Positions 20,009 through 49,937 of a stretch of DNA of 64,000 nucleotides are shown one piece after another. Below the pieces are notes generated by a model. The model saw only the letters and a list, made by a program, of their open reading frames with translations. It was not told the DNA's origin and searched no databases. Position 1 is the first letter of the stretch; each line of letters starts with the position of its first letter. The stretch comes from a virus. Taxonomy: Duplodnaviria > Caudoviricetes. The stretch covers positions 1 to 64,000 of the IMG/VR virus record IMGVR_UViG_3300033075_001751; one strand, written 5' to 3'. The translations under genes and the position numbers were made by a program.

Positions 20009-20456
20009 AAAACTACATGAACTGTTGAATACAAAAGAAGAAGATTTATTCCGATTGCTTTTTCCGCAGGTTGCAATGGAAATGGGAGAAGAGAATCGGT
20101 TTCAACTTATAGAGGTTGTACTTCATGCTGTTGATGTATTGACGTGGAACTTTGCAGCAGAATTTACAGAATTCAACATTTTCGGTAATCAAGGTTTTAA
20201 CAGTAAGGGTGATTCTCAAAACCCTGATTATTTGATAGATCGAACTTGTTATGGTAGAGGAGGAAGAGAATTTAGTGTTCAAATTGTTGAAGTTATTCAG
20301 GTCAACAAAAGACAAGTTAAAAAAGCTCCTAGGTTTGAACTTCTCATCAAAGCCGTTTCGCTTTATTTCGATTCTTCTTTTCACGGTCACATGCTTCCGT
20401 TTAACTGTCCTATAAATAACTATTACGAAAATAATATATATGAATTGGTTTTTTGA
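19995..20456 (+). CDS. hypothetical protein, tandem paralog 3
   Basis: EFNIFGNQG, DRTCYGRGG. Confidence 0.7.
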   Translation: MLDIEKLHELLNTKEEDLFRLLFPQVAMEMGEENRFQLIEVVLHAVDVLTWNFAAEFTEFNIFGNQGFNSKGDSQNPDYLIDRTCYGRGGREFSVQIVEVIQVNKRQVKKAPRFELLIKAVSLYFDSSFHGHMLPFNCPINNYYENNIYELVF

Positions 20457-22459: not shown

Positions 22460-22992
22460 TACAGACACCGAATAAGATTTACTGCGTCGAATACAAAGGT
22501 GACCACGCAAAGCTTGGAGGCACGTATCATAGTCACTTTGTAATTGTAGTTGCTGCGTCCAGTATTGATGTTGCTCGACAATATGTAAAAGAGCAAATTG
22601 GTATTGATGAGGTTCCTACATGGCTCATGGGTTCTGCTTACCCGACGATCTGGAGTCAAGATGGAAGTGTTCCGTTACAGGTCCAAGCACAGATCTTGTA
22701 CAACGGAAATCATCATGTTCATCTCAAAGACAAGGAACCATCAGATTATCGGAGAAAACTGAATCCTTTAGTGTTTGATGAAGTTGGAACACACGCCTTT
22801 AGAATGACTGCAACCGATCCTGTATACGGTTGGTTTTGGTCAATTGTAAAAGGTAAAATGTTCAAAGCTTTTGTTCATATCAAAGACATTCCTCCAATAG
22901 AAGCTGATTCTTTGGAAGAAGTTTTAACAGAAATAGAAGACTTTCGAAACATCCGGCTGCTAGCTAATCTCCAACCTAGTCGCGGTTCTTAG
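22456..22992 (+). CDS. hypothetical protein (last gene of + arm)
   Basis: ATGA-coupled start at 22456; 3' end overlaps the convergent giant gene. Confidence 0.65.
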   Translation: MIQTPNKIYCVEYKGDHAKLGGTYHSHFVIVVAASSIDVARQYVKEQIGIDEVPTWLMGSAYPTIWSQDGSVPLQVQAQILYNGNHHVHLKDKEPSDYRRKLNPLVFDEVGTHAFRMTATDPVYGWFWSIVKGKMFKAFVHIKDIPPIEADSLEEVLTEIEDFRNIRLLANLQPSRGS

Positions 22993-25900
22993 CTCCTTGG
23001 AAGTTTTTGATTGCCATAACCGGTGAGGTAGTCGAACCGGTTACACCGATCGATTTCATCATGTGGTTGATAAATTTGGAACCACCTTCGTCTTGCCAGG
23101 TGTATGGACCAACCTCACGCTGGTAGTAACCTTTGTCATCCAAGAGTTGGCTTACGTCATTTATCATTGTCAACCACATGTTGACGGTAGGTGACATGGC
23201 TACACTCTTGGTGTCAAGGGATCTCTTGTAATCGTCCAAACCAAAACCGGGAAGCGGAACGAAAGATTCATTCTCTGCACGGATGTTCATGGCAAGAGAG
23301 AGCGCATGGTTTGATAACCATCCTCCAAGATGGAATTCTTCGTCTTGCTCATGAGTAAACAGACCCGGGAGAGCTCCTGATTTTTCCCTGAGTTTTGCGT
23401 AACGTTCTTCATCGTCATCGTCCCATCCAAAAACAAGAGGAAGGATGATCATGTTAACCATCATGAGCAGACCCATTTCCAAACCTACTTTTTGGAATGC
23501 TCTCATCTCCCGACTTTTCATTGCCGGCATATACTTGAACTTGGATTTTACCATGTGCATCAAAGCTTGGATAGCCGTGATGTAGTATCCTTCAGATGTA
23601 TCTCCAAGTGCAATGTCGTAACGTGCCTGTGGAGCCCAGATCTTTCCTCGGAATGCCCAACGACTCATCAGCATCGGTGTAAAGTATCGCTTCATGAAAC
23701 TGATTGCACGGAATGCAAGGTACCGGGAAGCTTCCGGTTGATCAAAGCCGGCGTATGCACCGTTGAGTGAGTTGGATACCTGGTGTCCGCGATTGCGGAA
23801 AGCTTTGAATTCTTTTGCGGATCCGACAGTTATCGAAGCTCCTTCCGTAAGATCGATCGTCCTATTGCGTTCTTTGAGTTGTGCAACTGTAATGTTGTAT
23901 CGGGCAGCAATCGAATCTTCTGTATCACCGGCAGCTACGGTGTGAACGGTTTTACGGTTTGACCATTCCGGATCAATACCAGGCTTCAATGTGATTTGAC
24001 CGTCTATCAGCTGCCATGCTTCCGCATAAGGAATCATCCTTTTGGTTCCATTGGTTGTTTGCTCCACCATTTGAGTGTAGAGCATTGCACCATGAAGTGT
24101 ATGTGCAGCATGAAGTTCAGACCACTTTCGGAAGTTGTAGAGCGGACCGGTGCTGACTGCATCTTTGAAGATGGTACGTGACATTCCTTCACCAAACTTC
24201 TCTTCGAACCTACCTTGAGCTACGTCAAAGATTTCGCTCAATTGGATTTCAAGAGGTTTGTTTCCATGGTTGTAAACATGCATGGATGTTTTAGCCATGA
24301 GATTGGTTGCCCAGGTCAAACCCTTTGGAATACTTGACGGTGCAACGTGAGCTCCGCCGGCAGCTTCCAACATTGTTTGGAACTGCGCACCCATCGAGTT
24401 CTTGAGAGCCGACGGGATATTGAGTGCGAAAAAGGCAAAGGATGCACGACCAAAGATTGCAGAGCTGATCGCTTGCACTTGTTTGTTGTCACTTCCCCAT
24501 CCTTTCATCCGGATTCCTTGGAACTCGCGTTCATAGAGATTTTCAATAGCTGCAGCTCGAACCGACTTTCCTTTTTTGGTAGTGGGGTGGAACAAACCAG
24601 TGCGCTGCCAAATAGATTTGTTGGCGGTACCGATTTGTTGAATTGCAGATTCCGGGGAACTGACAATGTTTTTCAAAGCTTTTGCGATCGGATTCATCTT
24701 GCGCAAAACCTTGTGACGTTCACCTGAAAGCATGTAGCGCATCATGGATGTTGTTACATCCAATGACGTTTCTTCTAGTGACAGATCCGATAGACCCTGC
24801 ATCGGGATCCCCTTGTCTTCTTCATCCCACATGTCTGCGTTCACGAGCGTCGCGTCATCTTGCCAGTTCAAACCCTGGTCGTAGTCGTCTTTCATCTTGA
24901 ACCAGAAAGACTTGATCCAATCGATGAGACGCTTCCACAATGTGGTAGGGGTATCCTTGTCGGCAGCCCTCACGATTTCCAAACCTTGTTTCCTGAAACG
25001 GGGTATGTCCATCCACAATTTAGATCCCCTGCCCAGACCCGATTGGGCTGCGAGGTGATGCTCTTTCATTTTCTCAAGTACAGCGAAGAGTGCAGGCTCC
25101 TGGCGTTTGATCCGATAGTATTCAGGGTTGATGTACTCAAAATTGACAGAGATGTCTCCTATCATCACATCTTGTCTACCTTCGATCCCACCATGCTCTG
25201 CGAGTAGTGGCAATGGATTTCTCTGGTTGTCAACCGTCACGCCGACACCGTTGTAGGGTTGGTTCCAAGTCTTGTATTCGTCCTTGACCTTACGCATGAA
25301 ATAACGACGGGAAGGAATACCCATGATCTCTTCAATGGTGCCGTCTTCTTGCATGACTCCGGTAGTCTCATAGTGGGTAGAGTCAAGTGGTCGGATCACA
25401 CTCCATACATAAAGCCTTTCTTTACCGGGAACGTATTTCTTTTGAGCATCGTCCCAAGTATCTTTGTCAAGATGATTTTTGTCGTACCATTCTTTGAAAG
25501 CTTGGTTCTTCATTCCGATCATGGTCTTGACTTTCATTTGATCTACCAGCATTGAAGCAGTAGTTTCATCAAACTCGCTAAAACCGTATAGCAGTTTCAA
25601 ATCGTTTCGATTTTCTGCTGTAAGTAAACGGTTGACCGTTGTAATGTAATACTCGGTAGGTTCCTTGGATTGAAGATTTGCCAAGTCTGCATACGCCTTA
25701 TTCAGTTCGTCCAACATCAACGGTGTGATGGGACTGTTTTTCATGAAAGCGTCACGCTTGTCGTTCAGATCTTTAAGGGTCTGTTCGTCTGCCGGGCTAT
25801 TCTGGATCCCATTCTTTTTGTTGCTGTACAGTATTGACCGCAACCTTCTTTCATCTTTGGTAAGACCGCTGAGAGATTCCTGCTTGTCTTTGATTTCTTG

Positions 25901-28729
25901 GATCATTTTCTGAAGATCCTTTACACGCTGTATCCGAGTTTCACTTACTTGCGAACCTACCGGCTGACCATCTTCGTCACGGTTGGGACTTACCACATCG
26001 ATGATCTCAGCCCATTTAAGGGCAATGTCTTCGTCAGCACCTTGAGTCTTGGGTATGAAAGAAGTGATTCTTGCAATCACTCCCAAGATACGTTCGCGCT
26101 CCTGGTAAAAAGAGTCTTTGAGTTTTACCCGGGTGTTTTTGTCCAACCATCTTTGACGTTCCTTGTCCCATGCATCACGTTCGGTAGAACCCGGTGCACC
26201 TTTTACAAAACCGTCATTGAGCATTTTCTGCTCCCATCTTTTGAGAGCATTTTCAAACACGCCTTCCCGGGGTTTATCTTCGAAAAATTCGAGCGATGCT
26301 GCACGGTATGCGCGAAGACGTTCCGCAACATTCAAATCTTTTGTTGCATCGTAGGAAGGATCATTTGGATTCAGTGCAACTTTTAAGACACCATCATCAT
26401 CCCGCAAACTGTGAAGCTGTCTGATTTTGGATTGAATCACATCAAGTTCATCCAAGATGTTCAATTCTGCTTCTTCTTGGTCCGGTGTACCAGTGATGCT
26501 TTTTTCCAAAGCTTCCATTTCACTGTATAATTTTTGACGAGCTTCGTATGCAATCTGTCCGATCCCATCGTCAAACATTCTTTCGCGCTCATAAAACGCA
26601 GGAACGTTTTCTTGATGAAAGTGTGTGCGTAGGTGAACTCTTTTTTGCTGTTGAAGTCTACGAAGCTTCAACCGGTCTTCATTCAAACCGGTTTCATTGT
26701 AAGTGCGCTTTGCACTCTCAATCTCAAAGTCAAACATCCCCATTACAAAACGGTAGTCTTTATGAGGAGAGATGAAACTGTGACGCATCTTTGTAGTAAA
26801 GACACGCTTTCCTTCTACTTTTTCGATACCGCCAACCCGGTCTACGAAAGTTACCTGTGAACCCAGTTTGCCAATGTTGGAAGGATTGTAACCAAGAGCA
26901 GCAAGAAGAGGCTGCATGTCCCGCGCAAAGTCATTGTACCGGGTCTGAGAATTTTGCAATGCCTCGGTAACACCTGACTTTACAAATGATGCAAAGCTGG
27001 AGATGATTGGATCTTGATTGTACAAATAACCTTCAAGGAAGGAGTTGAGGAAGTGTGCATCACCCAACTGACCTTTCATTGTTTTTCGCAGTGTTTCCCG
27101 AACTACATCCCGAAGAGATTCACCAGGTTGCAGCTCACGTCCCACAAGAGACATCGCCTTGTATTCTTTCTCGTACTTGTTTTTGATCCAATCCTGTCCT
27201 GTGCGGGTTGCATGTTCGATCAATTGCTTGTAACGAGCTTCCACTTGTTTGACCATGGGTTCGATTTGTTCCCACAGTACATCCAAAACACCTTCTTCAT
27301 TAATAATACCTGCATTTTTGTTTGCTGCCTTGATCGCTGTTTGAATAGATGATACAAGTGCAAATAAGGGAGAATCGACTGCAATGTTGTTGTCGAGCAT
27401 GGACTGCTCCATTTCCGTTGCAAATTTTCCCCAGTAGGAAAGCAAGTTGTTGAAGTACGTCAGACGAGCGACGTTTTCAACTGTATCTTGATTGTTGTGC
27501 GCAAGCTTATCGATCTCATCTTTGATGTGCTTGAGAGCTTTGTGCAGACGTTGAAGATTGTCTACAAAAGCTGCAGCGTGAGCCCGGGCATTGTCACTAT
27601 CTTCAAGTACACGGTCCGCAGCGTTGTTGATGAGAGTTTCGTATTTTCCGAGGTTTGCTTTGATCTCCTGTAAGATACCACGATTGAACTCGTCAGTGAG
27701 AGCATCAACCAAACCTTTATGGTCTTTGTTTGCCTTCATCGATTTGATTTGCCGGGAAATCATTTCGTGAAAATCGTTGATCTGACTTTGGATTACTTTG
27801 TTTGGAAGCTTTTCCATGTCATCGATCATCTCCTTTTGAGATGCAGCATAAGCCACAATCTCATCCGGAGAAGCATTCTCCATATCCAGATTAAACCTAC
27901 CGCCGTTCTCCAGCATCTTTGCAAGATCAATCAGAGAGGTATTTACATCAAGATTCTCTACACTGCTGGTGATACCGAATAGTGCACGGAACATTTGACG
28001 TAGCGCGAAGAGCATGTCTTCAATCCATGATGCGAATCCTCCTGAAGAAACTTTATTGTTGTGTTGGTCCTGCCAGGCTTTTGAAAGAGCTTTTACAACA
28101 GCTTCTTCAACTGTCATCCACTCGGGTAATCCTTCGGTTTCGTTGATTGCCTCTTCAATGATCTGTCTACCTTCCTCGGTTTGTTGAAGTGACCGGTAGA
28201 GATTGTCAAGCAGATTGGGATTTTGCGCAGAGAGAGCCCTGACAAACGGGTGAGAAAATTCGTGGAATACAGTATCTTCGGTAATGTTCTCTCCGACAAG
28301 ATAGACAACACCATCCAAAAAGAAAGCTTTCTGATTGACATAAGGGTTTTGCCGGTTCGCAGTAAGCATCCTTGCTTCTTCACGACTGACTACCCTGTGT
28401 TGCACACCCAATGATTCCGATAGACGGTTCATCATTTGAGCGGTAGCTTTTCTTGCAGAAAGATTGGATTGGTCCAATGTGATCTCATTGCTGGACCACA
28501 CTTCCCCGAATGCAGAACTTGATGCAAAATCCAGATCTTCGAAGTCAGGTTGAAATGTAAGTGTTTCGACAGGTGCAATAAGTCGCTTTTCCATGATGAG
28601 CTTTTCCGCTACATCTTCAACACTTCGAATAGTATCGTTGTGTTGAGCGAAGTCTCGGTAAGCTTCAAACTTTCCAAATGCCGCTTCGAGAGCCTGCCAT
28701 TCTGGTGTGTAAATATTAGGACAACCCAT
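22976..28729 (-). CDS. giant virion ejection/cargo protein (~1917 aa) with zincin-like HExxH, LysM and C-terminal hydrophobic helix
   Basis: Likely start MGCPN at 28729; FHEFSH near 28255; LysM HTVAAGDTEDSIAARYNITVAQLKERN at ~23820-23945; hydrophobic GLLMMVNMIILPLVFGW. Confidence 0.8.
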   Translation of the reverse strand: MGCPNIYTPEWQALEAAFGKFEAYRDFAQHNDTIRSVEDVAEKLIMEKRLIAPVETLTFQPDFEDLDFASSSAFGEVWSSNEITLDQSNLSARKATAQMMNRLSESLGVQHRVVSREEARMLTANRQNPYVNQKAFFLDGVVYLVGENITEDTVFHEFSHPFVRALSAQNPNLLDNLYRSLQQTEEGRQIIEEAINETEGLPEWMTVEEAVVKALSKAWQDQHNNKVSSGGFASWIEDMLFALRQMFRALFGITSSVENLDVNTSLIDLAKMLENGGRFNLDMENASPDEIVAYAASQKEMIDDMEKLPNKVIQSQINDFHEMISRQIKSMKANKDHKGLVDALTDEFNRGILQEIKANLGKYETLINNAADRVLEDSDNARAHAAAFVDNLQRLHKALKHIKDEIDKLAHNNQDTVENVARLTYFNNLLSYWGKFATEMEQSMLDNNIAVDSPLFALVSSIQTAIKAANKNAGIINEEGVLDVLWEQIEPMVKQVEARYKQLIEHATRTGQDWIKNKYEKEYKAMSLVGRELQPGESLRDVVRETLRKTMKGQLGDAHFLNSFLEGYLYNQDPIISSFASFVKSGVTEALQNSQTRYNDFARDMQPLLAALGYNPSNIGKLGSQVTFVDRVGGIEKVEGKRVFTTKMRHSFISPHKDYRFVMGMFDFEIESAKRTYNETGLNEDRLKLRRLQQQKRVHLRTHFHQENVPAFYERERMFDDGIGQIAYEARQKLYSEMEALEKSITGTPDQEEAELNILDELDVIQSKIRQLHSLRDDDGVLKVALNPNDPSYDATKDLNVAERLRAYRAASLEFFEDKPREGVFENALKRWEQKMLNDGFVKGAPGSTERDAWDKERQRWLDKNTRVKLKDSFYQERERILGVIARITSFIPKTQGADEDIALKWAEIIDVVSPNRDEDGQPVGSQVSETRIQRVKDLQKMIQEIKDKQESLSGLTKDERRLRSILYSNKKNGIQNSPADEQTLKDLNDKRDAFMKNSPITPLMLDELNKAYADLANLQSKEPTEYYITTVNRLLTAENRNDLKLLYGFSEFDETTASMLVDQMKVKTMIGMKNQAFKEWYDKNHLDKDTWDDAQKKYVPGKERLYVWSVIRPLDSTHYETTGVMQEDGTIEEIMGIPSRRYFMRKVKDEYKTWNQPYNGVGVTVDNQRNPLPLLAEHGGIEGRQDVMIGDISVNFEYINPEYYRIKRQEPALFAVLEKMKEHHLAAQSGLGRGSKLWMDIPRFRKQGLEIVRAADKDTPTTLWKRLIDWIKSFWFKMKDDYDQGLNWQDDATLVNADMWDEEDKGIPMQGLSDLSLEETSLDVTTSMMRYMLSGERHKVLRKMNPIAKALKNIVSSPESAIQQIGTANKSIWQRTGLFHPTTKKGKSVRAAAIENLYEREFQGIRMKGWGSDNKQVQAISSAIFGRASFAFFALNIPSALKNSMGAQFQTMLEAAGGAHVAPSSIPKGLTWATNLMAKTSMHVYNHGNKPLEIQLSEIFDVAQGRFEEKFGEGMSRTIFKDAVSTGPLYNFRKWSELHAAHTLHGAMLYTQMVEQTTNGTKRMIPYAEAWQLIDGQITLKPGIDPEWSNRKTVHTVAAGDTEDSIAARYNITVAQLKERNRTIDLTEGASITVGSAKEFKAFRNRGHQVSNSLNGAYAGFDQPEASRYLAFRAISFMKRYFTPMLMSRWAFRGKIWAPQARYDIALGDTSEGYYITAIQALMHMVKSKFKYMPAMKSREMRAFQKVGLEMGLLMMVNMIILPLVFGWDDDDEERYAKLREKSGALPGLFTHEQDEEFHLGGWLSNHALSLAMNIRAENESFVPLPGFGLDDYKRSLDTKSVAMSPTVNMWLTMINDVSQLLDDKGYYQREVGPYTWQDEGGSKFINHMMKSIGVTGSTTSPVMAIKNFQGAKNRD

Positions 28730-29045
28730 ATTCGTAGATATCGCGAATAATTGAAAGACCTCTAGTAAGGTCGATATTACCTTCAAAAATTAAACGTTGT
28801 TCACCCTTTCTATTTAGAATCTCTAAAAATTTGCAACGCTCGTAGTTTAGTTTTGGTTGGGATCGCTTCTTTTCCATTGTAAACCAACACACATCGTAAA
28901 GTTTCCCCTTTGTCAAAATTGACGGTGAAGTAGAATACTTTTTTCTCCACATTTCAAATAAAGTATAACCCAAATCTCGATCTGGTTGATGTGTTGAGTT
29001 TATCAGCTCTTGACACTTTACAATTTCAACATTCAAAATCCACAC
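28716..29045 (-). CDS. small hypothetical protein inserted between giant genes (helical-tag-like N-terminus)
   Basis: Fills the ~300-bp gap; KCQELINSTHQPDRDLGYTLF; GTG/TTG start. Confidence 0.5.
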   Translation of the reverse strand: MWILNVEIVKCQELINSTHQPDRDLGYTLFEMWRKKYSTSPSILTKGKLYDVCWFTMEKKRSQPKLNYERCKFLEILNRKGEQRLIFEGNIDLTRGLSIIRDIYEYGLS

Positions 29046-32000
29046 TCCTTCATTTTTTCCCGGATCATGTGATCCGAAACCGGCTGAACTGCTTGAACGA
29101 TATTCAATCCTTCCCTTTTCACTGAATCCGCAGTAGTCATGCCGGGATTAATGTAACCGAACTCGTCAAACAATTGCTGAGACAAATATAGGAAAAGTAT
29201 TGGATTGAACGCTGGTCCTTGTTGGAGCATGTGTTGCCCATACCCCCTTTTTGCAAAGACGATTTTAGCTCCTTGAGATTGTTTTTCTTTTATACGCTTG
29301 ATCGCAGTGTCAATACCGATCATGGCTTCTTCGGTCATGTTCCCATCGTTTTCCGGAATTGCATCTACACCGGCAACAAAAGAATCGAACACAGGAAGCC
29401 CAATTGCAGCATCCGCAAGAATTGCATGAGAAAGTGATGACTCATTCATCTTACTAATCCCAGTGGTTCCTTGAAGTGCGCCATTGAATACTACAAGAAG
29501 ATTGTCAGGATTTTTGACAAGATTCGATTTAGGATAGCTTACACCACCAACTACAATGCTGGTTTGGTTGATCTCATCAAACTGAGCATTGTCCCAATCA
29601 ACTACTTTTTGATCGGGTGCAACATCTTTGATTCTTTCAAATGAAGTTTGCCAGCTTCCAATCTTTACAGTATTGGTCTTTCCAAGAATTGATTTGAAAT
29701 GTCCTACCGTCCATCTTTCCTTTTGAGACCATTGTTCAATCCATGTGGGATCGGATGTATTTTGTGCTGTAAGTTGTTCTACTCCAGTAATTCTGTATCT
29801 CTGCGGTCTATTCTCAAAAGTTACAATATCCCCCACATTCCCCAATGGAAAACTTCGTGTCGTTGCGGTACGTTCCCCCGATTCTACAAGTGCAAGAGTT
29901 GTAGTTTTCTTTCCCGTAAGGTTCTCATTGACAGGCATGTCATAAGACATTGCGTGATTCTTTACAGGACTGTCTTTTTTTACTTCTTCTTTTTTGGCTG
30001 GTTTCGCCAGATCCGACAAAGAAGAAGCATTCAGATAATCCTTACCTCGTTGACGTTCGCCACTGGAACGTTTGTTTTGGGCAACGAAATCAGAATAGTA
30101 CGCCTGCAAGAGAGTATTGTCCAGTTTACCTTCAGCTACACCATCAAGGTAATTCTCAATCATTGTGAGAGGAGCATCCATGATGTCGGTAAAGTATCGC
30201 GCCGGTATGATCCTGGTAAGTGACATTGCTCCACGAGTACTCAGACCTGATTGCAGAAAAGCATAGAAAGGAATCGCATTGAACACATCATGAATCCAAA
30301 TGTTGTCTTCACGATCGGATACAATCACTTCGTCACGATCCATCAACCTTTGAAGATTCTCATAGAGTGCATCAATCTGATCGGATGTCAGTTTGGATTC
30401 TCTGAGTTTCAAGTTTTTGTAAGGCAATTCCGTAGAGCCTTCTTGAAGTTCGCCGGTGTCAGTTACAACCATGTCCAACAAATCAAACTCTGCACGGAGT
30501 TCCGGATACTTTTGTTTGATTCGGTACACCTGGTCCGCGATGGAATTGCCGGGAGACTTGAACAGAAACCATGGGTTGTGAGTATTCATCAATGCTTTGT
30601 CGCGCAGCATACCTTCATATACCTGCCGGCGTACATGGGACTCTTGTTCCGGTGTAAGACCATCCGGTTTTCCACGAAGTGCGCGCTCCATCGAAAACTC
30701 CAACTTTTCTTTGTAAGCATTGGTATCGCGCACTGTATCGAACGAGTAGGTAGTACCGCGAAGATTTTCACGTTCAAACACAAAACGCATGTATTCTTTA
30801 CGAGTCTTAAATGCTCCAACTGGAATAGAAGCAAGACCACGTTCTGAGTAAGATCCCTTGTCGTATTCGGCTTTGGTGTAATCTGCACTGAGAGTGGCTG
30901 CGTCGTAATACAACACACCGTCTTTCATGAAGACCCCAAACTTCAACGAAGGTACTTTCTGAATATTTCCGGTCTTGACAACCGATCCTTTGTAAGTATC
31001 TTTTTCAGGATTGAATTCACCGCGCAAAGTGTTCTGGAATACCCAGGACATGAAATCGTTTGCAAATTCCGAGATGAATCGATCCTGTTGACCTTCGCCG
31101 AAAGTAGCTTCTACATCTTTACGGAATCCTTTGGATTTTACTTTTGCAAGCATGAACTCTTTCATTGCGTCATGTGTGCGCACAGTAAAGACTCCTTCTC
31201 CCCTGTTACCGCCCCAAAGAGCTACCAAGAAGTCTTGAATCTTGAAAGACGAAATAGCAGAAGCCTCATCAATCTTGTCAAGAATGTAGGTTGGAATCAT
31301 CGGATTTTGTTTCAGTTCATCCACCTGTGATGTTCGGAGATGAGCTTCAAAAAATGAATTTGTACGAGTTGTATCGTAGTTCATTCTCATTTTTACATCC
31401 CGGATTGAGTCAGCCATTCCATCAATGTGCAGAAATTCAAGAAAGACAGCTTCGTTGAAAGCATCTGACTGGTTACCGTTTACCGCTGCTTCTAAGCTTG
31501 TTTCTGTAAATTCTCCCATTGCTTGGTTCTTTGCAATGCGCATTTCTTCAACTGCTTTTACAGACTGTGGACTGTTAGGCTTTTCGATGTTGAAGTACCG
31601 TGCAAGCATTTTCTCTTTTGCAAAGTTCTTGTACCAATTGGGATTCTCCGGTGCCTGGTTGGGAAATGCTTTGCCGAAAGTAGACTGAGCAGTCTCCAGC
31701 ATCTTTTTGTATTCCCGGACCATGGGGTTGGATACAAAAAGTACCGCTTGACGAAATGGTACTCCTGCTTCAATCAAGAATTCCATTGCCGGTGTAAGTT
31801 GTTTGTTACCCTGTACATCAAAAACCCAGGCATCTTTTGCCACGTCAACCCATCCGTTGATAAGCTGTGCAATCACTTCGGAGATGACATTTTCTCCTTT
31901 TACATCCCGCTCATGGCTTAACGAAATAGCATCTTTTCCTTTGTAGGGCAAGATGTTATGCTTCATGTTGATGCTTTGTGTTTTACGAAAGGATAGTTTT

Positions 32001-35000: not shown

Positions 35001-38000
35001 ACAGATGGATCGACCGAGTGAAAGTTACTGACTCCGATGTAGGTTGTACCGTCACTGAAAGAATTGTAGTTACCGTTGGTATTGTACTCCAACCCATTCA
35101 TATAAGATGGACCGTAGAGATAGGTACTACCTTTATCGGCATGACGAGTACCTTCTGTAAAGCCGTTGTGCAGAATGGTGTGCAAATCCATGAGGATCTT
35201 GGTTGCACTGTCTGCTGTTGCGCTGGAAACACCGTGGGAATCTTCTCCTTCAATTGATCGGGCTCCCGAGAGATTCTTAAGATTAAGAATTACCGGGTTT
35301 CTTTCACTGTCAAGTTTCCGGTTTCCTTCCTCATCGAACATCATGTTGAACCAGGCTGACTCTTTTACAAAAAAATTGTAGCGAGGATCAAGGTATTCCA
35401 TGTGAGGCATTGCAATCAATTCCGCAACAGTGTTTGCGCGGTTGAGTGAATCCACCATCATTGAGAGTGTGGAATGAAGAGATGTCTCATACTGAGAGTT
35501 ACCTGTTGCATTTTGTGACGCGAAAGACCATGGTGTATTACCATGCTTCAGTTCTATCTCAAGCAACCAGTTAAGATTCTTACCTTCATTTGCAAAAACT
35601 GATTTTGCTTTGTTGCCGCTTGAAATCTCCGAGTGTTCTGTTGCCAGTACTGTAATCTTACCAAACTTGTCGGTTACTCTTTGCTCCAAAGGTTTGGTCA
35701 TTTCACTGAGCTTTGCAGTGATTTGTTTACGCAACAAAATTCCTTCCGGTGAACCAAGCTCCTTGATGACTCCTTCGCTGCTGGAAAAATTCAAACCCAG
35801 TTGGGACCAGAACCAAAAATGATTGTCCGGAAGACGTGCTGCTTCTTGCAAAAATGAAGGGATATCCAGGAACCTGCCTTTTTCAGATTCCTTGATGTGA
35901 GGATACATGTAAGGATTGGAAATAGATTGAAAATAGGAATTCCAATCCCGGCGCAATTTTGGTGTTGAACCTTGTGCGTTACCAAAGCGAGTACTGTGTA
36001 TTGTAGCTGCAGTATCCCAGGTACCATCAGGGTTTTGCTTTTTGTTTCCCCGGGTTGTTTCCATGATCAACTCGTTCAGCGGGATCCAAGCTTTATTGAA
36101 TGTCTGCCAGAACCGGGTTTGCATTTTGGTACTGTTGGTAGGATCACCCAACTTGTCAATGATTTGAGACAGGAAAGGATTTTCTCCTCTCAAGTTTTCC
36201 ATGATTTCAATCATCTCCCGGGGACTGTTCACGTTGAGAAGATTCTTTTGAAGAACTGCCCATACTGTTTCACGCTTCATTAGTTTGCGGAAACCGAGAC
36301 GATTGAGTACAGGTTTCCCTTCGCGGTCTACTTCAATGATCGAACCGACCATTTCAAGCACACCTTCTTTGGCAAGTTCTTGCATAGAACTTTCATTGCC
36401 GGCTCGATCAAATCCTTCGCGTGCAGTTACAGCTGCATCCTGACGATCGGATTCTTCCATCTCTTCCAAGATAGCTTTCCGGTCTGCAAAGCGTGATCTG
36501 ACGATATGGTACGAAGCAACTCCTTTCTTTCCGAGCCCGTTGAGATCTCCGAAGTTTTCTATCGTAGCATTGATCAACTCAAAATCCCGAGTGCGTAAAT
36601 TGAATTCATGACGAACCTGCTCGTCTTCTTTTTCATGAAGCTTTTCAGCAAGAGCGTTTACTTCTTGAGCGATTCGCAGACGTTGTGGGACCAGGCGTTC
36701 TTCTAAGATCCATTCGTATGCCAATTGTCGGATAGCAGGATTGCGCAGAACTACGTGTACGTTCATGTACCGGGTAGGGTACTTCATCGAAGGAGTATCT
36801 ATTTCTTCCCATTGGGAAGGATCCTCTATCAATCCACTTTCAACAGCGTTATAGAACTCAGTGTATTCAGCTATGAGTCCATCGATTGTTTCGACAATAA
36901 GCTTGGAATCTTGGGCACCCATTTCAGAGTGTCCTTCACCTGGCTCAATGAGGTCGATACCCTTTTCAAACACACCGTTAAATTGGGTTTCCTCATAAGA
37001 AGCAACCTTGAATTTTCCACTGTGGAGTTTTTGGTACATCTCGCGTACCATTGGGACTTCACCGACAAGTCCTTCCGCAACAGTGGCATCTGAGAAAAGA
37101 GCTTTAAGAATAGCCCAGATTTTTTGAAAAAACGTTTTGACAGGAGACAGCTCAGGTTCTTTCGCACCGCCGGTAAGAACATATTGGCGAAATCCTTCTG
37201 CCAACCATTCTTCAATTTCCAGATCATCTGCAACCCGGAAAGAGCGAGTCTTACCTTTATGAGTTTTGAATGTTCCGGATTGTTTCCGGACCGCATCGTA
37301 GAGTTTCTTCTTTTTGTTTCCAAGCACAAGCGTGGAAAATCCGTGCCAGGCTTCGTGGTAAATGTCTGTGCGGTCAGACCCTCTCCAAAGCACAATACCG
37401 TTGCGTGAGAATGTTGCAACTGCATTTGGATTGTCGGTACTTACCAGATCGTAAGCTTCTTCCAATGTGATTACTTTGGAAAGAGGACTTGCGTCAAACC
37501 ATCTTTTTGCTTCGTCTTGCTGTTCTTTTGATGAGAAATCGTTCAAGACTTTTTGAGCGCGTCCTTTTTCAAAAACTTGTTTTGTGCCGGCGGTGTACTT
37601 TTTTGCTTGTCCTTCAGTTTTTCCTTTTTCTTTATTCTCTTTCTTTTTTTCTTCTGACTTTGGTGTTTCGAATTTGAAAGAGAGATATGGATTCAACTGG
37701 ACAAATTTTCCTTCAGCATTTGTCTTGAGGTTTACAAACGAAACGGATTTGATCCATTCATTGTAACTGGTCTGCTTACCGGTTACAAGATCTCCTTCTG
37801 CATCAAAATGAAAAGGAGTGTATTTTCCATTTGCTTCCCGGGACTTCAGGTTGTATTGGACCTGGCGGACCCTTGTAAAAGTTTCTGTTTTGTTCCGCGT
37901 GCGTATCAAATCTCCTTGCTTTGCATTGTTTTCCCAGTCTTCAGTAGAATCCCAAATTCTAGCGGAACTTTCTCCGTTTGAAATTGCCTTTGCAAGTTTT

Positions 38001-39475: not shown

Positions 39476-39476
39476 A

Positions 39477-42400
39477 TCAACAAGTTTTTTCGTCTTTCAT
39501 TTTTTGCAAAAGCTCATCTTCGGAAAGCTCGTCTGCTTCTTTGATAAGTTCGTCTATGTTATCTGCGGCAACTTGAGCTTGATACCCTTTGTTCGCAAGT
39601 GATTGGTCTTGAGGTGTTACTACCTCTTCCGAAACTGGTGTCAGTTCTTTTTCTTTCTGTTCAATCATTTCACTTATTTCGATAGATGAGACACCGCCAG
39701 TCGCTTCTGCGTCTCCTGTCGAGAACGCTTCCATAGCTTCCTGCTTTACTTCTGCAAGTTCGTCAAGTGAACCTGCATTTGCAACTTGTTCAGCGATAGA
39801 GTTTTCTCCAAGAGGAGAAAGCGTACTGCGCCGGTTAGCTTCCGCATTGAGAATAGCTTCCAAAGATACACCCGTAGTTTGCTTTACAGTCTTTTCAATC
39901 TCTTTGAGTTGATCGCGCAATGAGATTTTTCTGCTGTTGAGATCTCCGTAAAAAGTAGTATCGCTTTTACTGTTTACAGATCCTACGCCGGCAGGATAAG
40001 ACAAAATGAAATCTGCAATGGCATCTTCAATTTCACGTTCACTATTTCCTATACCTTCGTTGAGAAGACTGGCTGCTACACTGGATAAAGTGTCATTATC
40101 TTCATCGGCATTTTTGAAATACCGGTTCATCTGAGAAGTCACTTTGCTTTTACCAACATGACCTTCAAGACTTTTCTTGGATACTGTGATGCCGCCATCG
40201 GATACGATTTGAGCATGCACCGGATCAAGTAAGGTCAAGTCATCCAATTCTGCAAGTTCTTGTGTAATGCGAGCATGATCTTGAATAAGAATGTAAATAT
40301 CCCGAGGAGCTTCTTGTTCTTCTCCAGAAAAAGCTCCTTCGAATGGTTCTTCGATTTGAGTCTGAGGTTGGACCGGGGCAGTTTTCTTTTCTACAGGTTG
40401 ATTCGAGCGAACATCAGAAATAGCCTTTCTAATGAAAGCTTCCATTGCCGGTGTGAAATTCAATCTTGGAGCAAACGGACCTTGTGTTTTTGCTGCTTCT
40501 TTCCACCAGGTAATCAAAGCATCCGCATCGTCCGGTGACAGTTCTCCAGAAAGAATCTCAGCCTGTATTTTTACGCTTGTCTCTTTCGGGTCCAGCCCAT
40601 AGTTTTCAAACCTGCGGTACAGCTTTTCTCCAAGAGGAGCTCTTGCTTTGGCTTCTTCTATTTCTCTTGCCTGTTCTGCAAGACCATCCATGAAAGGATC
40701 ACTTGTAGGAATTTCAGCTACAGGTTCAACCGGTAATGGTTGTTCTTCGATTTGAGGTTCAGCTGCTTCTAATACTTTTGGATTGATTACTCGTCCTTCA
40801 ACATCATCTTTTGCAGTGAGACCAATCAGTTCAAGTCTTCCGTCGTCTTTGTTTTTGAGGATGTATGCTTCTTGAGTAGACATGTCTCCGGGTTCATACG
40901 ATACCTTGATCGGAATAATCGCAAGTTCTTGAGCAACTAGACCATGTGTATTTGCAAGCAGGATGCGGTAAAGAGAAAGCTGATCAGTGTGTTTTTCTCG
41001 GTTCGATCTCTTTCCATCAAAACGATAATCGTAGTAAGAAGCATCCGACGTTCCGACAGCTTGGGCTTCAAGTTGGTTTTTACGCATGGATTTCATGTCG
41101 TAAATACGAACCACACCCATGTTGTCTACGGTCATGATGTCAACAGTACCGGCAAGTTTAAGCTGATCGTTGTACAAAACGATACCGGATGACATAACCT
41201 GCTCGTTCCTTGACTCAAAGAATTTCTTCAGTTCTTGAAGATCTTTGATGAAAGAATTGAACGTTGCTTCAGACGTATCATTACCCTGATCATCTTTGGA
41301 TTGAATCTTGGGAGAGACAACAAAGTATTCTCCCAAACTCAAGTCCATGAGAATAGTACCGCTTGGTCCCTTTGCGGATATCCTATTAGGGGTATTACCC
41401 TTACCTTTGATAAAAGCGTTTACTATGAATTTGTCTCCTCTTCCATTTACAATCTCGGTACCTTCTTTGAGATTTTTTTGATTCTCGGCGGTTACTGGAA
41501 TCCGGTGTCTGTAGTTAGACCAGACCATGGGTTTACCGTCGAAGAAGTCCCTTGTGATTTCGTCAATTGAGTTTCCGATTGTACTTGCAGATGGTCCCCA
41601 TTCCTCACCAATACCTTTTCCATCAGATCCGACAGAAGTTACCCGGTCATACAGTTGACCTGTTCTTTGATTTACATACTTGCTAGTAGCCCATTTTTTG
41701 AAATGCTCATCGGTATGTTCAAGAATTTTATTTGTGATCAAATACTGAAGATAGTCATCTAACGCAGCTGCAAGAAGTTCATCTTCGCCAAGTTGTTCAA
41801 AAGTGAATGTACTTGAAAGAAGTGTAATAAACGAAGCATTCTCTTTTACTTCATTGATGACTTGTTGGACCGATCGATTGACAGGAACCGCAGGTACAGG
41901 AGTTGGTGTAGGTTTGGAATCTAATGCAGCAATTTCAGCATCATACTTATCATTGATTTCTTTTTCTAAAGCCTCATATTTCAATGCGTTATCAAACTGT
42001 TCTTTTGTAACGTGAGACAATCTTTCGTCTTCCCTAAGTTCTTTTATCAAGTCTTTATTACCTTGAGCATAAGCAACTGTTGTTCCATCGCGACGTATAA
42101 ACTCAGCTGTATAGACTGTATAATTATCCCCTTCAAAAGAACCCTTTACTATATAGTAAGGTACTTTTTCGTTTAGTTCTTTATACCTTCTTTCTTGAAT
42201 TGCTTCTATTTTAGCATCTTTTTCAGAAACAACTGTAGCTGGCTTCTCTTCTTGAACAACAGGTGGTTGACCAATGTGATAATCAGTTTCATCCAGCAAT
42301 GAGATCGGCGAGAGTGATCCCATCTTGTCATTGGGATCCACCGGTATAGCCCTGACGTATCCTCCTGTAAGATTACCCGCTTTATCCCGGACAGGTTTTA

Positions 42401-45400
42401 CTTCCTCGACTCGCATCTGTTTGGAGCCAGTAGGAAAATCCTCATCATCAGCAAATGGAGAAATGACAGTTACAATATCTCCTACTTGGGGAACATCTGT
42501 TTGTACAGAAGGTGTCGGCGGTGTTGGTGTAACAGGAGGAGCAGGTGGAAGTGGAACCGGTGTATTTTGAACTACTGGTACAGCAGTACCAAGTTCGGTC
42601 AATACAATTGCAGCCAAACCTGCAAGCAAAGGTTCGTCATTGACTACTCCGGCTCTTACCAAAATTTTCCTGAGTTCTCCTCCCTGTCCGTTTTTACCGA
42701 TAAGAACTTCTCGTTGCTTTTCAGGAGTAGCAGACTTGAACGTAGGTGTATTTTGCACAAGTGTAAACAGTGCAACAATATCTTTTATGACCTGTTCCCG
42801 TTTTGCTCTTGCTTGAGGATCTCTGGCAGCAAGTTCAGGTGAATTGAGTAATCTTACCAAAAGGACTTGCTCGAACGTAGGTCCGGAAGAACTTACTCGT
42901 TGTTGCGATACAGGTTGTGCGGCAGGTGCAGGAGTTACCGGTGGGGCGACTGGTGGTTGCAGTTGATTCAGCAGTGTTGTTGCTGTGGTGCTTTTCTTCA
43001 ACCATTCTTCGAAAGTAGGATAGTCTTTTTCAACTTCCGGATCAGCTACAATCGCTGCCATATAAGCATCACGTAATGCTTTTTCCGTAGCTGCAGTCAT
43101 CTGAACAGGTGGAGCAACAGGAGCAGCTACAGGAGCCTGGACAGGGGCAGCAACCCTACCTTCAGCCTGCATCCATTTGTCAATGATTTCAGCTGCTTTC
43201 TTGTGTTTAGGTGAATTCTTTGCAATAGGTTGATGTCCTACAGCGTCATAAAACGTTTCCGGAATTACATTCTTTTCCAGCATTTTAAGCATGGACTCAG
43301 GTTCGAAGTAAATTCCTTCAGCTGTAAGTAGCGAAATTAGTTCGTTGGTTGACTTCTTTTTCAACCATTTCTTCAAAGACTTTTCAATGTGCTTTGCACG
43401 GTTCTTGTGTATTTCACCAAGTGTTGCAGCATGTATTTGAGCAAGTCTGGTAAACGATTCCGGGTTGTGAAACTGATTGACTACGGTCGATAGTACTTGA
43501 GCATCTTCGGACAAGCGCAAAAAGTCTACGTATTGTTCAAAAGACTTTGCAACATTCTCATCCAAATTGAATGTACCCCATTTGGTAATTCGTTTCAGAT
43601 AAGCGTTGTACGATTTCTTCAGTGCTTTGTGGGCAAGCTTTGCAGCATTCTCATCAATCTTTTCTTCTTTGGTACCTTTCTCTCTTGCTTTTTCATTGCG
43701 AGCTTGTGCTGCAGCAAGCTCTTTCATTACTTTTTTGTAGTTGTCGCGCGCGGTGTGGAATTCGTTTAAAGCAACAAGTTTCTTTTTGAGTTTAGCTGCT
43801 TCTTTACGAGCTGCAGCATCACCTTGAGAAAGGACCGCAACTTGCTTGATAAGATTTTTCATTTCATCGCTGGCATTCTCTTCGTCAAAAATGAGAGAAT
43901 AGTCCAACGCATTCACATCGGTAAGACCGGCATTTCCCAATGCAGTATTGGAAATAGAATCCATACGCTCAAGAGCCTGGTCAAATGCACGCCGATTAAA
44001 CACAACTTGAAGTTGAGCTCCTCGCCAGCCATGAAAACCCATTACTTCTTGTTCGTATTCCGGTGTACCAGGTTTGTAAAGTTTCGGATCAAAAGGGTTG
44101 ACAAAGTTTTCATTGACTGCTTTGAATCGCGCAGTCATCTCTTTTACATCTGCAATACTTTTGTCGATACGCTGATAAAGATCGGTAGGATCATCAGCTT
44201 GCAATCCGAATGCTTCTTTGAGTTCTTCAGCTGTCAGGTCTTTGAGGGAAGCAAGTTGCTTGATAAGCAGATCGGTCTTACCGCTATGGAAAAGAGTATG
44301 GACGTGTTTAAGGAGAGCTTCATCTACTGTATCACGACCTACTTTTTGATCTCCTTCAACTTCGTTCATCAAAGTATGGACATCCAGTTGCTCGACCATT
44401 CCGTTAGAAATCGCATCAAAGTATTTTGCGGGATCTTTGTACAGATCGTTCATCGCGTTGAGAAGCTCTGTCTCGGCTTTCTCTTTTTGTTCGCGCATAG
44501 CCTTGAACTGTTCAGGCTTGGTGAACTTCATGTACTGACGGGTACTTTGATTTGCAATCCATTTTGGACCTTGCATCATTGTACCCATCAAAAAACCGGA
44601 AGCGAATACTTCAGCTCCTTCTGCGGAAAACTGCGAAGCTACTCCCTTGGAAACACTGTCCCACATGAGAGCACTGTTGAGCTTGGTACCCTCCCGGTCC
44701 GGATGTTCCATTTGGTTAAGGTAGTAGTTTTTGACCCCGACCTGAAGAGCTTCTTGAATTGATTCTTGGAAACCTTCTGCAAAGTTTGCTGCACTATACC
44801 GGAGGGAACCTTTTGCAATTGCTTTCGGAAGGTTTTGCCAGTAGGCTTTTGTGCCAAGGGCTTTCATTCCTTTTGCTGCAAACTCAAAAGGATCTTTACC
44901 CAGTTCTTTCCATCCTTTGTTTCGAATGATGTTTCTGGAAAAACCGGAAGATTCCAGCTCTTGCATTACTGCCCGAGGACCGATACCTCTTACTGCACGC
45001 TCAAGTACAATTTTGTTTGTGAGAAAGATTGCCGGCATGTTCAAGAATGCGGTTGCGCGTCCAGCTTGCTTTGCCTGACTTGCAATCATCTCGGCTTCTT
45101 TACCTTCAGGAAGTCTTCCGTTCTTTTCGTAAAAGTTACGAGAAAGTTCATCGTAAGTATCTGTCTCGGTAAATCCCCCTTCCAATTGGGATTCGGTTAA
45201 TACCGATCGCATCGCACGCAAGTCCCGGTAGAAAGCTCCTACTCCGTTTTTCATTTTTGCAAACTCGCTGATCGAATTTGCAGCACGCGCAGCGTCGGTC
45301 ATACCTGCAAGTTTGTCACCTTGCATCAGAAGTTTGGTTGTGTTTTCCATAGGATTCAAGACATTCAATGCTCCCTTACCTATTGTTTTTGCACTGTTCC

Positions 45401-46097
45401 AAAACGTTCTTGCGTCTTGTGCGGTATTGATTGCACGAAAAATATCCCGAGTATTGGAAAGAGTACGCCCCAATCTACCAAGCTGCATAGCATGTCGTGC
45501 TTCCATTGGACCGTGCAAAGGTGTACTGGCACCACCAGTCAATGCATCAAGTCCGACCAAAGCAGCTTCTTCCAACAGCATTTCACCAAGGATACCGAAT
45601 GTATAAGCACTGTTGCCGGCAAGGTTCGTAACAAATCCTCCTACACCACCACGAGACGAGTTTGCAATGGACATTGATTTTTCCATTGCCGCGGAAGCTT
45701 CTGTATTTCCGTCAGCAGTAAGATTGAAAAAACCGGTAGCATTGTCCCATGCTGCACGCCCAACCATCCCCGGAATCTCTTTTGCTGCACGCCAAAAGTC
45801 ATCTGTCCAGGATGAGTTTTCGTTGTATTTTGTTTCGTTGTCGATGTATGGATCGAAACCCAACTTTGAGAAAGAAGGATGCGAGTAGTATCGCTCAAAG
45901 TTTTGACCGCGATGATTCGTACCAAATGCATGCTCTTTTGCAAAGTGCATTTGATCTTGGGATCCTGCAGACTTGAGTTTTTGCTCAAAGTTGAAACCTG
46001 GTGCAGTAGCAGGTACCGGCGACATCAAAGGCTCGCCGGTAGTGACTGCTTGTTTGCTTTGGTAAAGACTTTCGATGGGTGACTTAACCTCTTCCAT
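39477..46097 (-). CDS. giant virion ejection/cargo protein (2206 aa) with PD-(D/E)XK nuclease domain
   Basis: Helical Ala/Gly-rich N-terminal half, Pro-rich linkers, LAGTVDI...IYDMKS...QLSLY nuclease motifs at ~40950-41160. Confidence 0.8.
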   Translation of the reverse strand: MEEVKSPIESLYQSKQAVTTGEPLMSPVPATAPGFNFEQKLKSAGSQDQMHFAKEHAFGTNHRGQNFERYYSHPSFSKLGFDPYIDNETKYNENSSWTDDFWRAAKEIPGMVGRAAWDNATGFFNLTADGNTEASAAMEKSMSIANSSRGGVGGFVTNLAGNSAYTFGILGEMLLEEAALVGLDALTGGASTPLHGPMEARHAMQLGRLGRTLSNTRDIFRAINTAQDARTFWNSAKTIGKGALNVLNPMENTTKLLMQGDKLAGMTDAARAANSISEFAKMKNGVGAFYRDLRAMRSVLTESQLEGGFTETDTYDELSRNFYEKNGRLPEGKEAEMIASQAKQAGRATAFLNMPAIFLTNKIVLERAVRGIGPRAVMQELESSGFSRNIIRNKGWKELGKDPFEFAAKGMKALGTKAYWQNLPKAIAKGSLRYSAANFAEGFQESIQEALQVGVKNYYLNQMEHPDREGTKLNSALMWDSVSKGVASQFSAEGAEVFASGFLMGTMMQGPKWIANQSTRQYMKFTKPEQFKAMREQKEKAETELLNAMNDLYKDPAKYFDAISNGMVEQLDVHTLMNEVEGDQKVGRDTVDEALLKHVHTLFHSGKTDLLIKQLASLKDLTAEELKEAFGLQADDPTDLYQRIDKSIADVKEMTARFKAVNENFVNPFDPKLYKPGTPEYEQEVMGFHGWRGAQLQVVFNRRAFDQALERMDSISNTALGNAGLTDVNALDYSLIFDEENASDEMKNLIKQVAVLSQGDAAARKEAAKLKKKLVALNEFHTARDNYKKVMKELAAAQARNEKAREKGTKEEKIDENAAKLAHKALKKSYNAYLKRITKWGTFNLDENVAKSFEQYVDFLRLSEDAQVLSTVVNQFHNPESFTRLAQIHAATLGEIHKNRAKHIEKSLKKWLKKKSTNELISLLTAEGIYFEPESMLKMLEKNVIPETFYDAVGHQPIAKNSPKHKKAAEIIDKWMQAEGRVAAPVQAPVAAPVAPPVQMTAATEKALRDAYMAAIVADPEVEKDYPTFEEWLKKSTTATTLLNQLQPPVAPPVTPAPAAQPVSQQRVSSSGPTFEQVLLVRLLNSPELAARDPQARAKREQVIKDIVALFTLVQNTPTFKSATPEKQREVLIGKNGQGGELRKILVRAGVVNDEPLLAGLAAIVLTELGTAVPVVQNTPVPLPPAPPVTPTPPTPSVQTDVPQVGDIVTVISPFADDEDFPTGSKQMRVEEVKPVRDKAGNLTGGYVRAIPVDPNDKMGSLSPISLLDETDYHIGQPPVVQEEKPATVVSEKDAKIEAIQERRYKELNEKVPYYIVKGSFEGDNYTVYTAEFIRRDGTTVAYAQGNKDLIKELREDERLSHVTKEQFDNALKYEALEKEINDKYDAEIAALDSKPTPTPVPAVPVNRSVQQVINEVKENASFITLLSSTFTFEQLGEDELLAAALDDYLQYLITNKILEHTDEHFKKWATSKYVNQRTGQLYDRVTSVGSDGKGIGEEWGPSASTIGNSIDEITRDFFDGKPMVWSNYRHRIPVTAENQKNLKEGTEIVNGRGDKFIVNAFIKGKGNTPNRISAKGPSGTILMDLSLGEYFVVSPKIQSKDDQGNDTSEATFNSFIKDLQELKKFFESRNEQVMSSGIVLYNDQLKLAGTVDIMTVDNMGVVRIYDMKSMRKNQLEAQAVGTSDASYYDYRFDGKRSNREKHTDQLSLYRILLANTHGLVAQELAIIPIKVSYEPGDMSTQEAYILKNKDDGRLELIGLTAKDDVEGRVINPKVLEAAEPQIEEQPLPVEPVAEIPTSDPFMDGLAEQAREIEEAKARAPLGEKLYRRFENYGLDPKETSVKIQAEILSGELSPDDADALITWWKEAAKTQGPFAPRLNFTPAMEAFIRKAISDVRSNQPVEKKTAPVQPQTQIEEPFEGAFSGEEQEAPRDIYILIQDHARITQELAELDDLTLLDPVHAQIVSDGGITVSKKSLEGHVGKSKVTSQMNRYFKNADEDNDTLSSVAASLLNEGIGNSEREIEDAIADFILSYPAGVGSVNSKSDTTFYGDLNSRKISLRDQLKEIEKTVKQTTGVSLEAILNAEANRRSTLSPLGENSIAEQVANAGSLDELAEVKQEAMEAFSTGDAEATGGVSSIEISEMIEQKEKELTPVSEEVVTPQDQSLANKGYQAQVAADNIDELIKEADELSEDELLQKMKDEKTC

Positions 46098-49571: not shown

Positions 49572-49937
49572 ATGGAAAGTAAAGGAAAGAAAAAGAAAGA
49601 AAAGGAAATCGTACATGACTCCCCAATCGGCGTAGAGAATGTAACTCCTGCTGGTAAAAAAGCAACCAGAGAGTATGAGTATGTGATTTCAAGAATATCG
49701 AGTCTTGGTAAGGAGATCAAGATTAGTCCCAAATCTCATTGTACTGTAAACAAGTCAGGTTTCAAAACAGAATTTTACGTGGAGACTGTAAACGTCTGTA
49801 TTGGAATTGGAACGGATCACAGTGCTGATCTCATCATGACAGTAGATGCATGGGAAGCATTGAATGCAGGTGAACCTTTGAGTATCACAACCGCAAAGGA
49901 ATTTAATGATAGATACGTTTACACAAAAAAAGCATGA
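49572..49937 (+). CDS. hypothetical protein
   Basis: ATG after AT-rich intergenic region; ATGA-coupled to HAD gene. Confidence 0.65.
   Translation: MESKGKKKKEKEIVHDSPIGVENVTPAGKKATREYEYVISRISSLGKEIKISPKSHCTVNKSGFKTEFYVETVNVCIGIGTDHSADLIMTVDAWEALNAGEPLSITTAKEFNDRYVYTKKA

Follow-up and report, generated by a model that had tools for sequence, protein, structure and literature searches.

Facing terminal cysteines of the giant cargo proteins in a crAss-like phage and its relatives: a paired residue at each joint that may tether the cargo into one thread

Among phages of the human gut, the crassviruses are the most abundant, and the way in which their polymerase-associated cargo of ~0.7 MDa is packed, passes the tail and is ordered is at issue. 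In crAss001, the cargo proteins gp47, gp49 and gp50 were detected in virions by mass spectrometry and were unresolved in the maps, and the order of cargo extrusion is stated as open (PMC10172136); in phi14:2, gp66 is translocated into the cell (bioRxiv 10.1101/2020.03.07.982082). We examined a stretch of 64,000 nt from a virus of the Caudoviricetes (positions 1 to 64,000 of the IMG/VR record IMGVR_UViG_3300033075_001751; the whole stretch is called the window below), which encodes three giant proteins, A, B and C, of the same three types as phi14:2 gp67-gp66-gp65 and crAss001 gp47-gp50-gp49, in a block after the muzzle gene. These proteins raise a question: why do chains of thousands of residues keep cysteine (Cys) only at the ends that face each other in gene order? 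The three genes and their four Cys codons, all read by exact translation, are the following.

39477-46097, minus strand: protein A, 2206 aa, first member of the chain
39480-39482, minus strand: codon of A Cys 2206, C-side of the A/B junction
29033-39475, minus strand: protein B, 3480 aa, crAss-type virion RNA polymerase (vRNAP), with Cys 3 and Cys 3478 only
39467-39469, minus strand: codon of B Cys 3, N-side of the A/B junction
29042-29044, minus strand: codon of B Cys 3478, C-side of the B/C junction
22976-28729, minus strand: protein C, 1917 aa from its own ATG, last member of the chain, with a zincin-like and a LysM domain
28721-28723, minus strand: codon of C Cys 3, N-side of the B/C junction

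An initial annotation, made by eye, had claimed that some 7,600 residues hold only four Cys, all at facing termini, with none inside the proteins and none at the two outer ends. Exact translation agrees on each point, including the positions of the four codons: A, B and C together have 7,603 residues and four Cys in all, the sole Cys of A being its final residue and the sole Cys of C its third, and the N-terminus of A and the C-terminus of C are free of Cys. The other proteins of the window contain 1.55% Cys (155 in 10,013 aa), so that ~118 would be expected in 7,603 aa (Poisson P(≤4 Cys) ~6e-45), and base composition alone predicts 2.7%. The chance that four randomly placed Cys would lie within three residues of the four facing ends is ~6e-12. 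Between A and B, the TGA stop codon of A is followed by 1 nt and then by the ATG of B.

The initial annotation had proposed a count across homologous triplets, and this count showed that the Cys at the facing ends are kept. A search of 5.8 billion proteins gave full-length homologs with 20-35% identity. Among those of A, Cys lies within the last six residues in 112/115 and is N-terminal in 1/115, with 14 internal Cys in 233,226 aa; among those of C, it lies within the first six residues (M-x(1-4)-C) in 53/54 and is C-terminal in 0/54, with 11 internal Cys in 117,920 aa. The B homologs (P0001-P0037) have one to five Cys per protein in total, with one within the last five residues in 35 of the 37, and the 11 closest carry an additional Cys at residue 3-5. 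In alignments of the end regions (A3-A6: the last 150 aa of A, the first 120 and last 200 aa of B and the first 250 aa of C), mean column identity is 12-28%; apart from the start Met and a single Ala, no column but that of the Cys is invariant or nearly so. Thus C3 of B is the sole invariant column of alignment A6, C3 of C that of A4, and the C-terminal Cys of B (C198 of the last 200 aa) the sole nearly invariant column of A3; C2206 of A is an invariant column of a further alignment, A2.

The same rule is followed by distant relatives, from sea water to the human gut. The cleanest case is phi14:2, where gp67 has Cys 1797 only (its last residue), gp66 has Cys 3 and Cys 2179, and gp65 has Cys 3; in crAss001, gp47 has Cys 2339, gp50 has Cys 5, 1334 and 2404, and gp49 has Cys 5. 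The window proteins are larger than these (B has 3480 aa, compared to 2180-2412 aa) and share ~22-30% identity with them over the parts that align. The gut families were reached with crAss001 gp50 as the query; a tblastn search of C against the INPHARED phage set gave no match.

Inside the giant proteins, Cys is rare. It makes up 0.011% of 673,062 aa of giant open reading frames (ORFs) versus 0.88% in small ORFs of the same IMG/VR loci, and most of the IMG/VR relatives sampled have zero or one internal Cys per chain protein. One clade, in which A and B are fused (P0016-P0033), has a conserved internal Cys 76-83 residues before the DFDxD motif of the polymerase core (..CEI[ML]..[HR]WF), which is absent from the clade with separate A and B genes, the window included. 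The gut crassviruses (L166-L170) keep the terminal Cys, and LMMB, crAss002, IAS and DAC15 have 3-10 internal Cys per chain protein.

Junctions between genes were compared in 160 IMG/VR loci that surround homologs of C or A. Here, ORFs were taken from the first ATG after an in-frame stop, every junction between consecutive large ORFs was tabulated with duplicates removed, and a Cys was counted when it lay within 10 residues of the facing end. In the resulting 304 non-redundant junctions, Cys was found on both sides in 82, on neither side in 217 and on one side only in five. In two of these five, the start codon was miscalled, the correct beginnings being MRRDC (L069) and MVNC (L097); one of the remaining three is locus L082, and the other two are between smaller ORFs. 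On the N side, the Cys occupies residue 3-6 in each of the junctions (83/83) and never residue 2; on the C side, 0-4 residues follow it in 79/83, and at most nine do so. The intergenic gaps run from -8 to 647 nt, and both Cys codons are in use. As the strand also varies, the pattern does not lie at the level of the DNA. This both-or-neither rule implies that pairing is required, leaving the chemistry unspecified. Hence, the comparisons support a strong selection on the facing terminal Cys as pairs. That the facing ends are paired is very probable, and it is more secure than any statement on the chemistry or the purpose of the pairing.

Could the terminal Cys simply have no function, as the places where a Cys is harmless in proteins purged of it for their passage through the envelope, or as a by-product of signals at gene junctions? 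Cys depletion is indeed known for ejected proteins. In N4-like phages, Cys accounts for 0.00075% in the vRNAP compared to 0.865% in the proteome, which is ascribed to passage through the periplasm (PMC11445570), and the depletion in the window giants is of this known kind; the retained terminal pairs are not in that paper. However, tolerated sites would vary and would include the outer ends, whereas the Cys observed here is invariant, and the N4-like ejection proteins are essentially free of Cys, their ends included. Opposite-strand arrangements, long intergenic distances and the occurrence of both Cys codons exclude a DNA signal, and we regard an absence of function as hardly credible. The published periplasmic passage also bears on the proposal of the initial annotation that internal Cys is absent to prevent mis-pairing: the depletion is real, but this explanation for it is not needed, because passage through the periplasm already provides one.

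The rule also persists where the genes have been split, fused or rearranged. In chains of two, three and four members, Cys is present at every facing end and at none of the outer ends, and the four-member chains (L025, L035 and L046) have a Cys pair at each joint, the layout in L025 being ..KCDI / MAC..396 aa..DCG / MACK. In L036, C is split into a 739-aa piece, which contains the N-terminal module of C, and a rest of 1858 aa, and the new joint has Cys on both sides; the frameshift-like pseudo-splits in L017, L080 and L081 have no Cys pair. In the Intestiviridae, the order is A plus zincin, followed by B plus the rest of C, and the single joint has a Cys pair. In LMMB, a relative of p-crAssphage, this joint reads ..SFSCM / MSCG, and in crAss002, gp32 ends in ..SFVCS and gp33 starts with MSCTPSNP if an internal ATG is taken. 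FpV4, the record of which does not place it in Crassvirales, follows the rule as well. crAss001, DAC15 and IAS virus encode the A-like protein on the opposite strand, and its C-terminal Cys is kept. The initial annotation had described the Cys pairs as facing each other in gene order; their selection as pairs stands, and gene order is not required.

Two observations concern the genes at these joints. In crAss002 (L168, MN917146; 17088-17184), the internal ATG is at L168:17184, with AT-rich sequence before it, and the true start of gp33 is probably 32 codons downstream of the annotated one. The N-terminal module of C, of ~70 aa, is portable: it heads the 396-aa link protein of L025, the 739-aa piece of L036 and phi14:2 gp65 (L165), and the copies in phi14:2 gp65 and the distant P0195 share 39% identity.

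Where A and B form one ORF (>4,100 aa; these vRNAPs have 4,100-5,100 aa), the N-terminus lacks Cys, as do the first ~4,300 residues seen, a span that includes the expected junction site, and the C-terminal Cys still stands opposite the N-terminal Cys of C. This bears on the explanation that the Cys are processing signals, that is, recognition or nucleophile residues for a polyprotein-like maturation, for example by the zincin domain of C. The authors of the phi14:2 paper suggest cleavage of the fused forms and a possible activation of the polymerase by the zincin protein. However, the fused A+B proteins lack Cys throughout the ~4,300 residues seen, among which a cleavage site would be expected, the ends of separate genes need no cleavage, and no protease or intein-like domain was found beside the joints, which together make a processing signal very improbable. 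A BLAST search of the end of A and the start of B onto the fused proteins gave matches for 9/56 queries, none of them in pairs, these regions being too divergent. Many independent A/B fusions had been considered and were rejected, since the tree of the A N-terminal domain needs one change only; rows L099, L120 and L157 carry a wrong label, a non-homologous upstream ORF having been picked for them.

The splits and fusions bear equally on the explanation that each terminal Cys acts alone with a third partner, such as a Cys of the portal, capsid or tail, or a host factor after ejection. In its favour, the tail and portal-vertex proteins of crassviruses are rich in Cys and engage in disulfides, the muzzle protein of the window has 18 Cys, and there are lone terminal Cys in the 1044-aa protein encoded just after the muzzle in the window, in the 861-aa protein of LMMB and in gp30 of both crAss002 and FpV4. 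A third partner would leave unexplained why the N-side and C-side Cys occur jointly, why the outer ends are free of Cys and why two Cys are gained at a new split and none is present at a fusion; we therefore consider it quite unlikely, although less so than a processing signal.

What, then, are the proteins that are paired in this way? The following parts of B and C were located.

32687-32701, minus strand: DFDID catalytic motif of B, residues 2259-2263, from the alignment to 6VR4
28577-28729, minus strand: N-terminal three-helix module of C, residues 1-51, carrying Cys 3 (AlphaFold2 model)
28250-28264, minus strand: zincin motif HExxH of C (H156, E157 and H160), invariant columns of alignment A1
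23852-23944, minus strand: LysM domain of C, residues 1596-1626 (Pfam PF01476, E=4.8e-6, above the curated cut-off)

B matches phi14:2 gp66 (PDB 6VR4) with phmmer (E=2e-19) in two stretches, including DFDID, and DFDxD was found in 33 of the 34 B homologs checked. By these matches, B is a crAss-type virion RNA polymerase of the two-barrel, gp66-like kind, as the initial annotation had proposed for the middle protein. C is homologous to crAss001 gp49 and phi14:2 gp65, and its H156, E157 and H160 are invariant across 41 sequences, which identifies it, at the sequence level, as a zincin-like cargo protein of this type. A is homologous to crAss001 gp47 and has a conserved N-terminal domain of ~900 aa; the same domain heads the larger fused vRNAPs, to which phi14:2 gp67 also aligns. 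A, B and C are most likely the RNA-polymerase cargo block of a crAss-like phage, packed into the particle and injected.

The position of the Cys on these proteins was modelled with AlphaFold2 (AF2), using 49-row alignments of the end regions. Cys 3 of C starts the three-helix module, which has a predicted local distance difference test (pLDDT) score of 92-97 for residues 1-50 (model m77787b77b2b0); a disordered linker (residues 52-85) joins it to the zincin domain, where pLDDT is above 90. Cys 3478 of B directly follows the last helix (188-197 of the modelled last 200 aa; pLDDT ~92, model mf1e4eceec969). In both models, the Cys would thus sit at the extreme end of a structured terminal piece. 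A complex prediction for the last 200 aa of B and the first 250 aa of C, with the same 49-row alignments, gave ipSAE values of 0.25 and 0.24, the mark being 0.32. A plug-and-socket fold common to the ends was also considered and was rejected, as hhalign gave a probability of 3.8% for the N-terminal ends of B and C and of 0.4% for the C-terminal ends of A and B. The initial annotation had noted shared contexts, KMK-x-C at the two C-termini and M-x-C-P at the two N-termini. These are real in the window, but they are no feature of the family; because the end modules show no homology to one another beyond the Cys, they are local resemblances only.

Taken together, the pairing rule and its persistence favour, if by no wide measure, the reading that Cys bonded in pairs, probably as disulfides, tie the A-B-C cargo into one thread. 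The bond, its chemistry, its timing and the purpose of a tether are deductions from this pattern. The C-terminal Cys of one protein would be bonded to the N-terminal Cys of the next, most likely by a disulfide formed once the proteins lie packed inside the particle, and A-B-C would thus make up one thread of ~7,600 residues. Very few residues lie beyond the Cys (2-5 at the N-terminal ends and, as a rule, 0-4 at the C-terminal ones), which suggests that the joint would be little thicker than one polypeptide and could fit through the tail channel. Each protein would then draw the next one through, giving a fixed order and 1:1:1 amounts, and the reducing cytoplasm of the new host would open the links and free the polymerase.

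The same ends might instead be coupled without a disulfide, by a metal bridged by two thiolates (two-coordinate Cu(I), or Zn with extra ligands), by non-covalent docking or by other thiol chemistry. On this point the both-or-neither rule is silent, and assembly in the reducing cytoplasm as well as the lack of a thioredoxin-family enzyme among the genome matches would fit such a coupling. However, only one residue is conserved per end, and a His, Asp or further Cys that would complete a metal site is lacking; residues that make a docking contact would be expected to have substitutes, yet the Cys is invariant in ends with a mean column identity of 12-28%; and disulfides are present elsewhere in the crassvirus particle (PMC10172136). 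A coupling of this kind is unlikely, but it is the strongest of the alternatives to a disulfide tether.

Several points weigh against a disulfide tether. The cytoplasm in which particles assemble is reducing, the 133,958-bp genome gave no thioredoxin-family match, and in the search for an Erv/ALR sulfhydryl oxidase the control itself matched nothing anywhere. The clade-wide internal Cys ~80 residues before DFDxD and the 3-10 internal Cys of the gut phages imply that the chain tolerates unpaired Cys. Parity is also imperfect: the 1044-aa protein of the window and its single close homolog have an unpartnered terminal Cys, as does the first post-muzzle protein of several phages, and the N-side Cys in L082 is without a visible partner. 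The Cys-bearing end modules are mutually non-homologous in profile comparison, with no common plug-and-socket fold. Finally, the fused forms make up a single clade in the tree of the A N-terminal domain, so that fused versus split A/B amounts to one evolutionary change, and the independent support rests on about five other rearrangements, not dozens. In L082 (6792-13768), a 1504-aa zincin protein starts with MSC, and neither of the upstream proteins (2261 and 820 aa) has a Cys at its C-terminus; the match of the 1504-aa protein to C is limited to the zincin domain, and L082 may belong to a different type of phage with the partner encoded elsewhere.

With these points in mind, we put forward a broader form of the disulfide tether as a tentative proposal, to which we give slightly less than even weight: the cargo of Crassvirales would be a redox-cleavable covalent thread of 5,000-8,000 residues with one disulfide per joint, which would set the order and stoichiometry of ejection, with reduction in the host as the trigger of release, and with a Cys pair and a peptide bond being interchangeable in evolution. 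According to the phi14:2 polymerase paper, the three cargo proteins are sometimes fused, and the fused A+B (and reported A+B+C) polyproteins of crAss-like phages have the same domains, with a peptide bond in place of the proposed Cys pair.

Long threads held together by disulfides that are confined to terminal regions are found in von Willebrand factor and the gel-forming mucins. These are homopolymers joined tail to tail and head to head through Cys-rich domains in an oxidising compartment, whereas the joints proposed here would have a single Cys per end and link different proteins head to tail. Nearer to the window, the crAss001 virion has inter-subunit disulfides in the tail and portal vertex (the gp57 dimer, the tail hub and the ring proteins), so that bonds between subunits do occur in a crassvirus virion (PMC10172136). 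They brace fixed parts, whereas the proposed bonds would join mobile cargo end to end and must reopen. The Schitoviridae (N4 gp50; DEV gp71, gp72 and gp73) likewise have a giant ejected vRNAP with companions purged of Cys, but their polymerase is of an unrelated family, and no retained Cys at the ends is reported for them in PMC11445570, whereas here there is one invariant Cys per facing end. The word "cysteine" does not occur in the crAss001 structure paper (PMC10172136), nor do "cysteine" and "disulfide" in the phi14:2 polymerase paper, and no earlier description of retained terminal Cys pairs was found in the open-access literature searched.

A conserved rule of one residue predicts which cargo proteins are tied to each other, and this can be tested on phages that are already in culture. 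The rule can further be used to correct start codons, to separate true gene splits from frameshift artefacts and to mark the members of the cargo chain in unannotated metagenomic contigs. A real tether would mean that several proteins are delivered as one molecule that comes apart on arrival.

The three genes belong to a tail and cargo block on the minus strand (22976-61041), which starts with the muzzle gene and continues with the genes of the 1044-, 860- and 1102-aa proteins and of A, B and C. Two further members of the block are given here.

46084-49392, minus strand: protein D, 1102 aa, free of Cys, outside the Cys chain
56095-61041, minus strand: crassvirus muzzle protein, 1648 aa, 18 Cys (Pfam PF25731 crAss_MUZ, E=5.5e-17)

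D is probably a further cargo protein. Its equivalents upstream of the chain in 80 loci mostly have zero Cys and are without a terminal Cys. For B, D, the 860-aa protein and a 78-aa ORF, no family was found in PHROGs or Pfam. The 78-aa ORF (28716-28952, minus strand; 2 Cys) fills the 300-nt gap between B and C and appears to be a recent insertion, because L003, a relative with 89% identity, has 9 nt in the same gap. Between the 860-aa protein and D, the minus-strand block is broken by two small genes of 121 and 155 aa (49572-50401, plus strand).

The 1044-aa protein just after the muzzle (52964-56098, minus strand) ends in ..KKGGEKC, a lone terminal Cys in a tail rich in Lys and Gly; this is a fifth terminal Cys, located beyond the span that the initial annotation had given. 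P0208, the only close homolog in which the C-terminus is covered, ends in ..RKGGMKC. Similar tails were seen on the first post-muzzle protein of other phages, namely ..GGKQSCR in LMMB (861 aa), ..FRCGGKKKIA in crAss002 gp30 and, at the N-terminus, MKKKCATKKK in FpV4 gp30; no facing partner Cys was seen for tails of this kind. The 1044-aa protein also has a borderline match to a YkuD L,D-transpeptidase (23.1 bits, with a cut-off of 23.4), which spans Cys 626 and 631.

Two further genes of the window may be mentioned. A 213-aa protein in the structural block (63179-63820, minus strand) has 13 Cys (6.1%), a hydrophobic, signal-like N-terminus (MKNLVCILFFIP) and no family match. A 598-aa DNA methyltransferase (20440-22236, plus strand; PHROG 116, E=1.5e-63) is encoded by the penultimate gene of the plus-strand block, a short way ahead of where gene C ends convergently.

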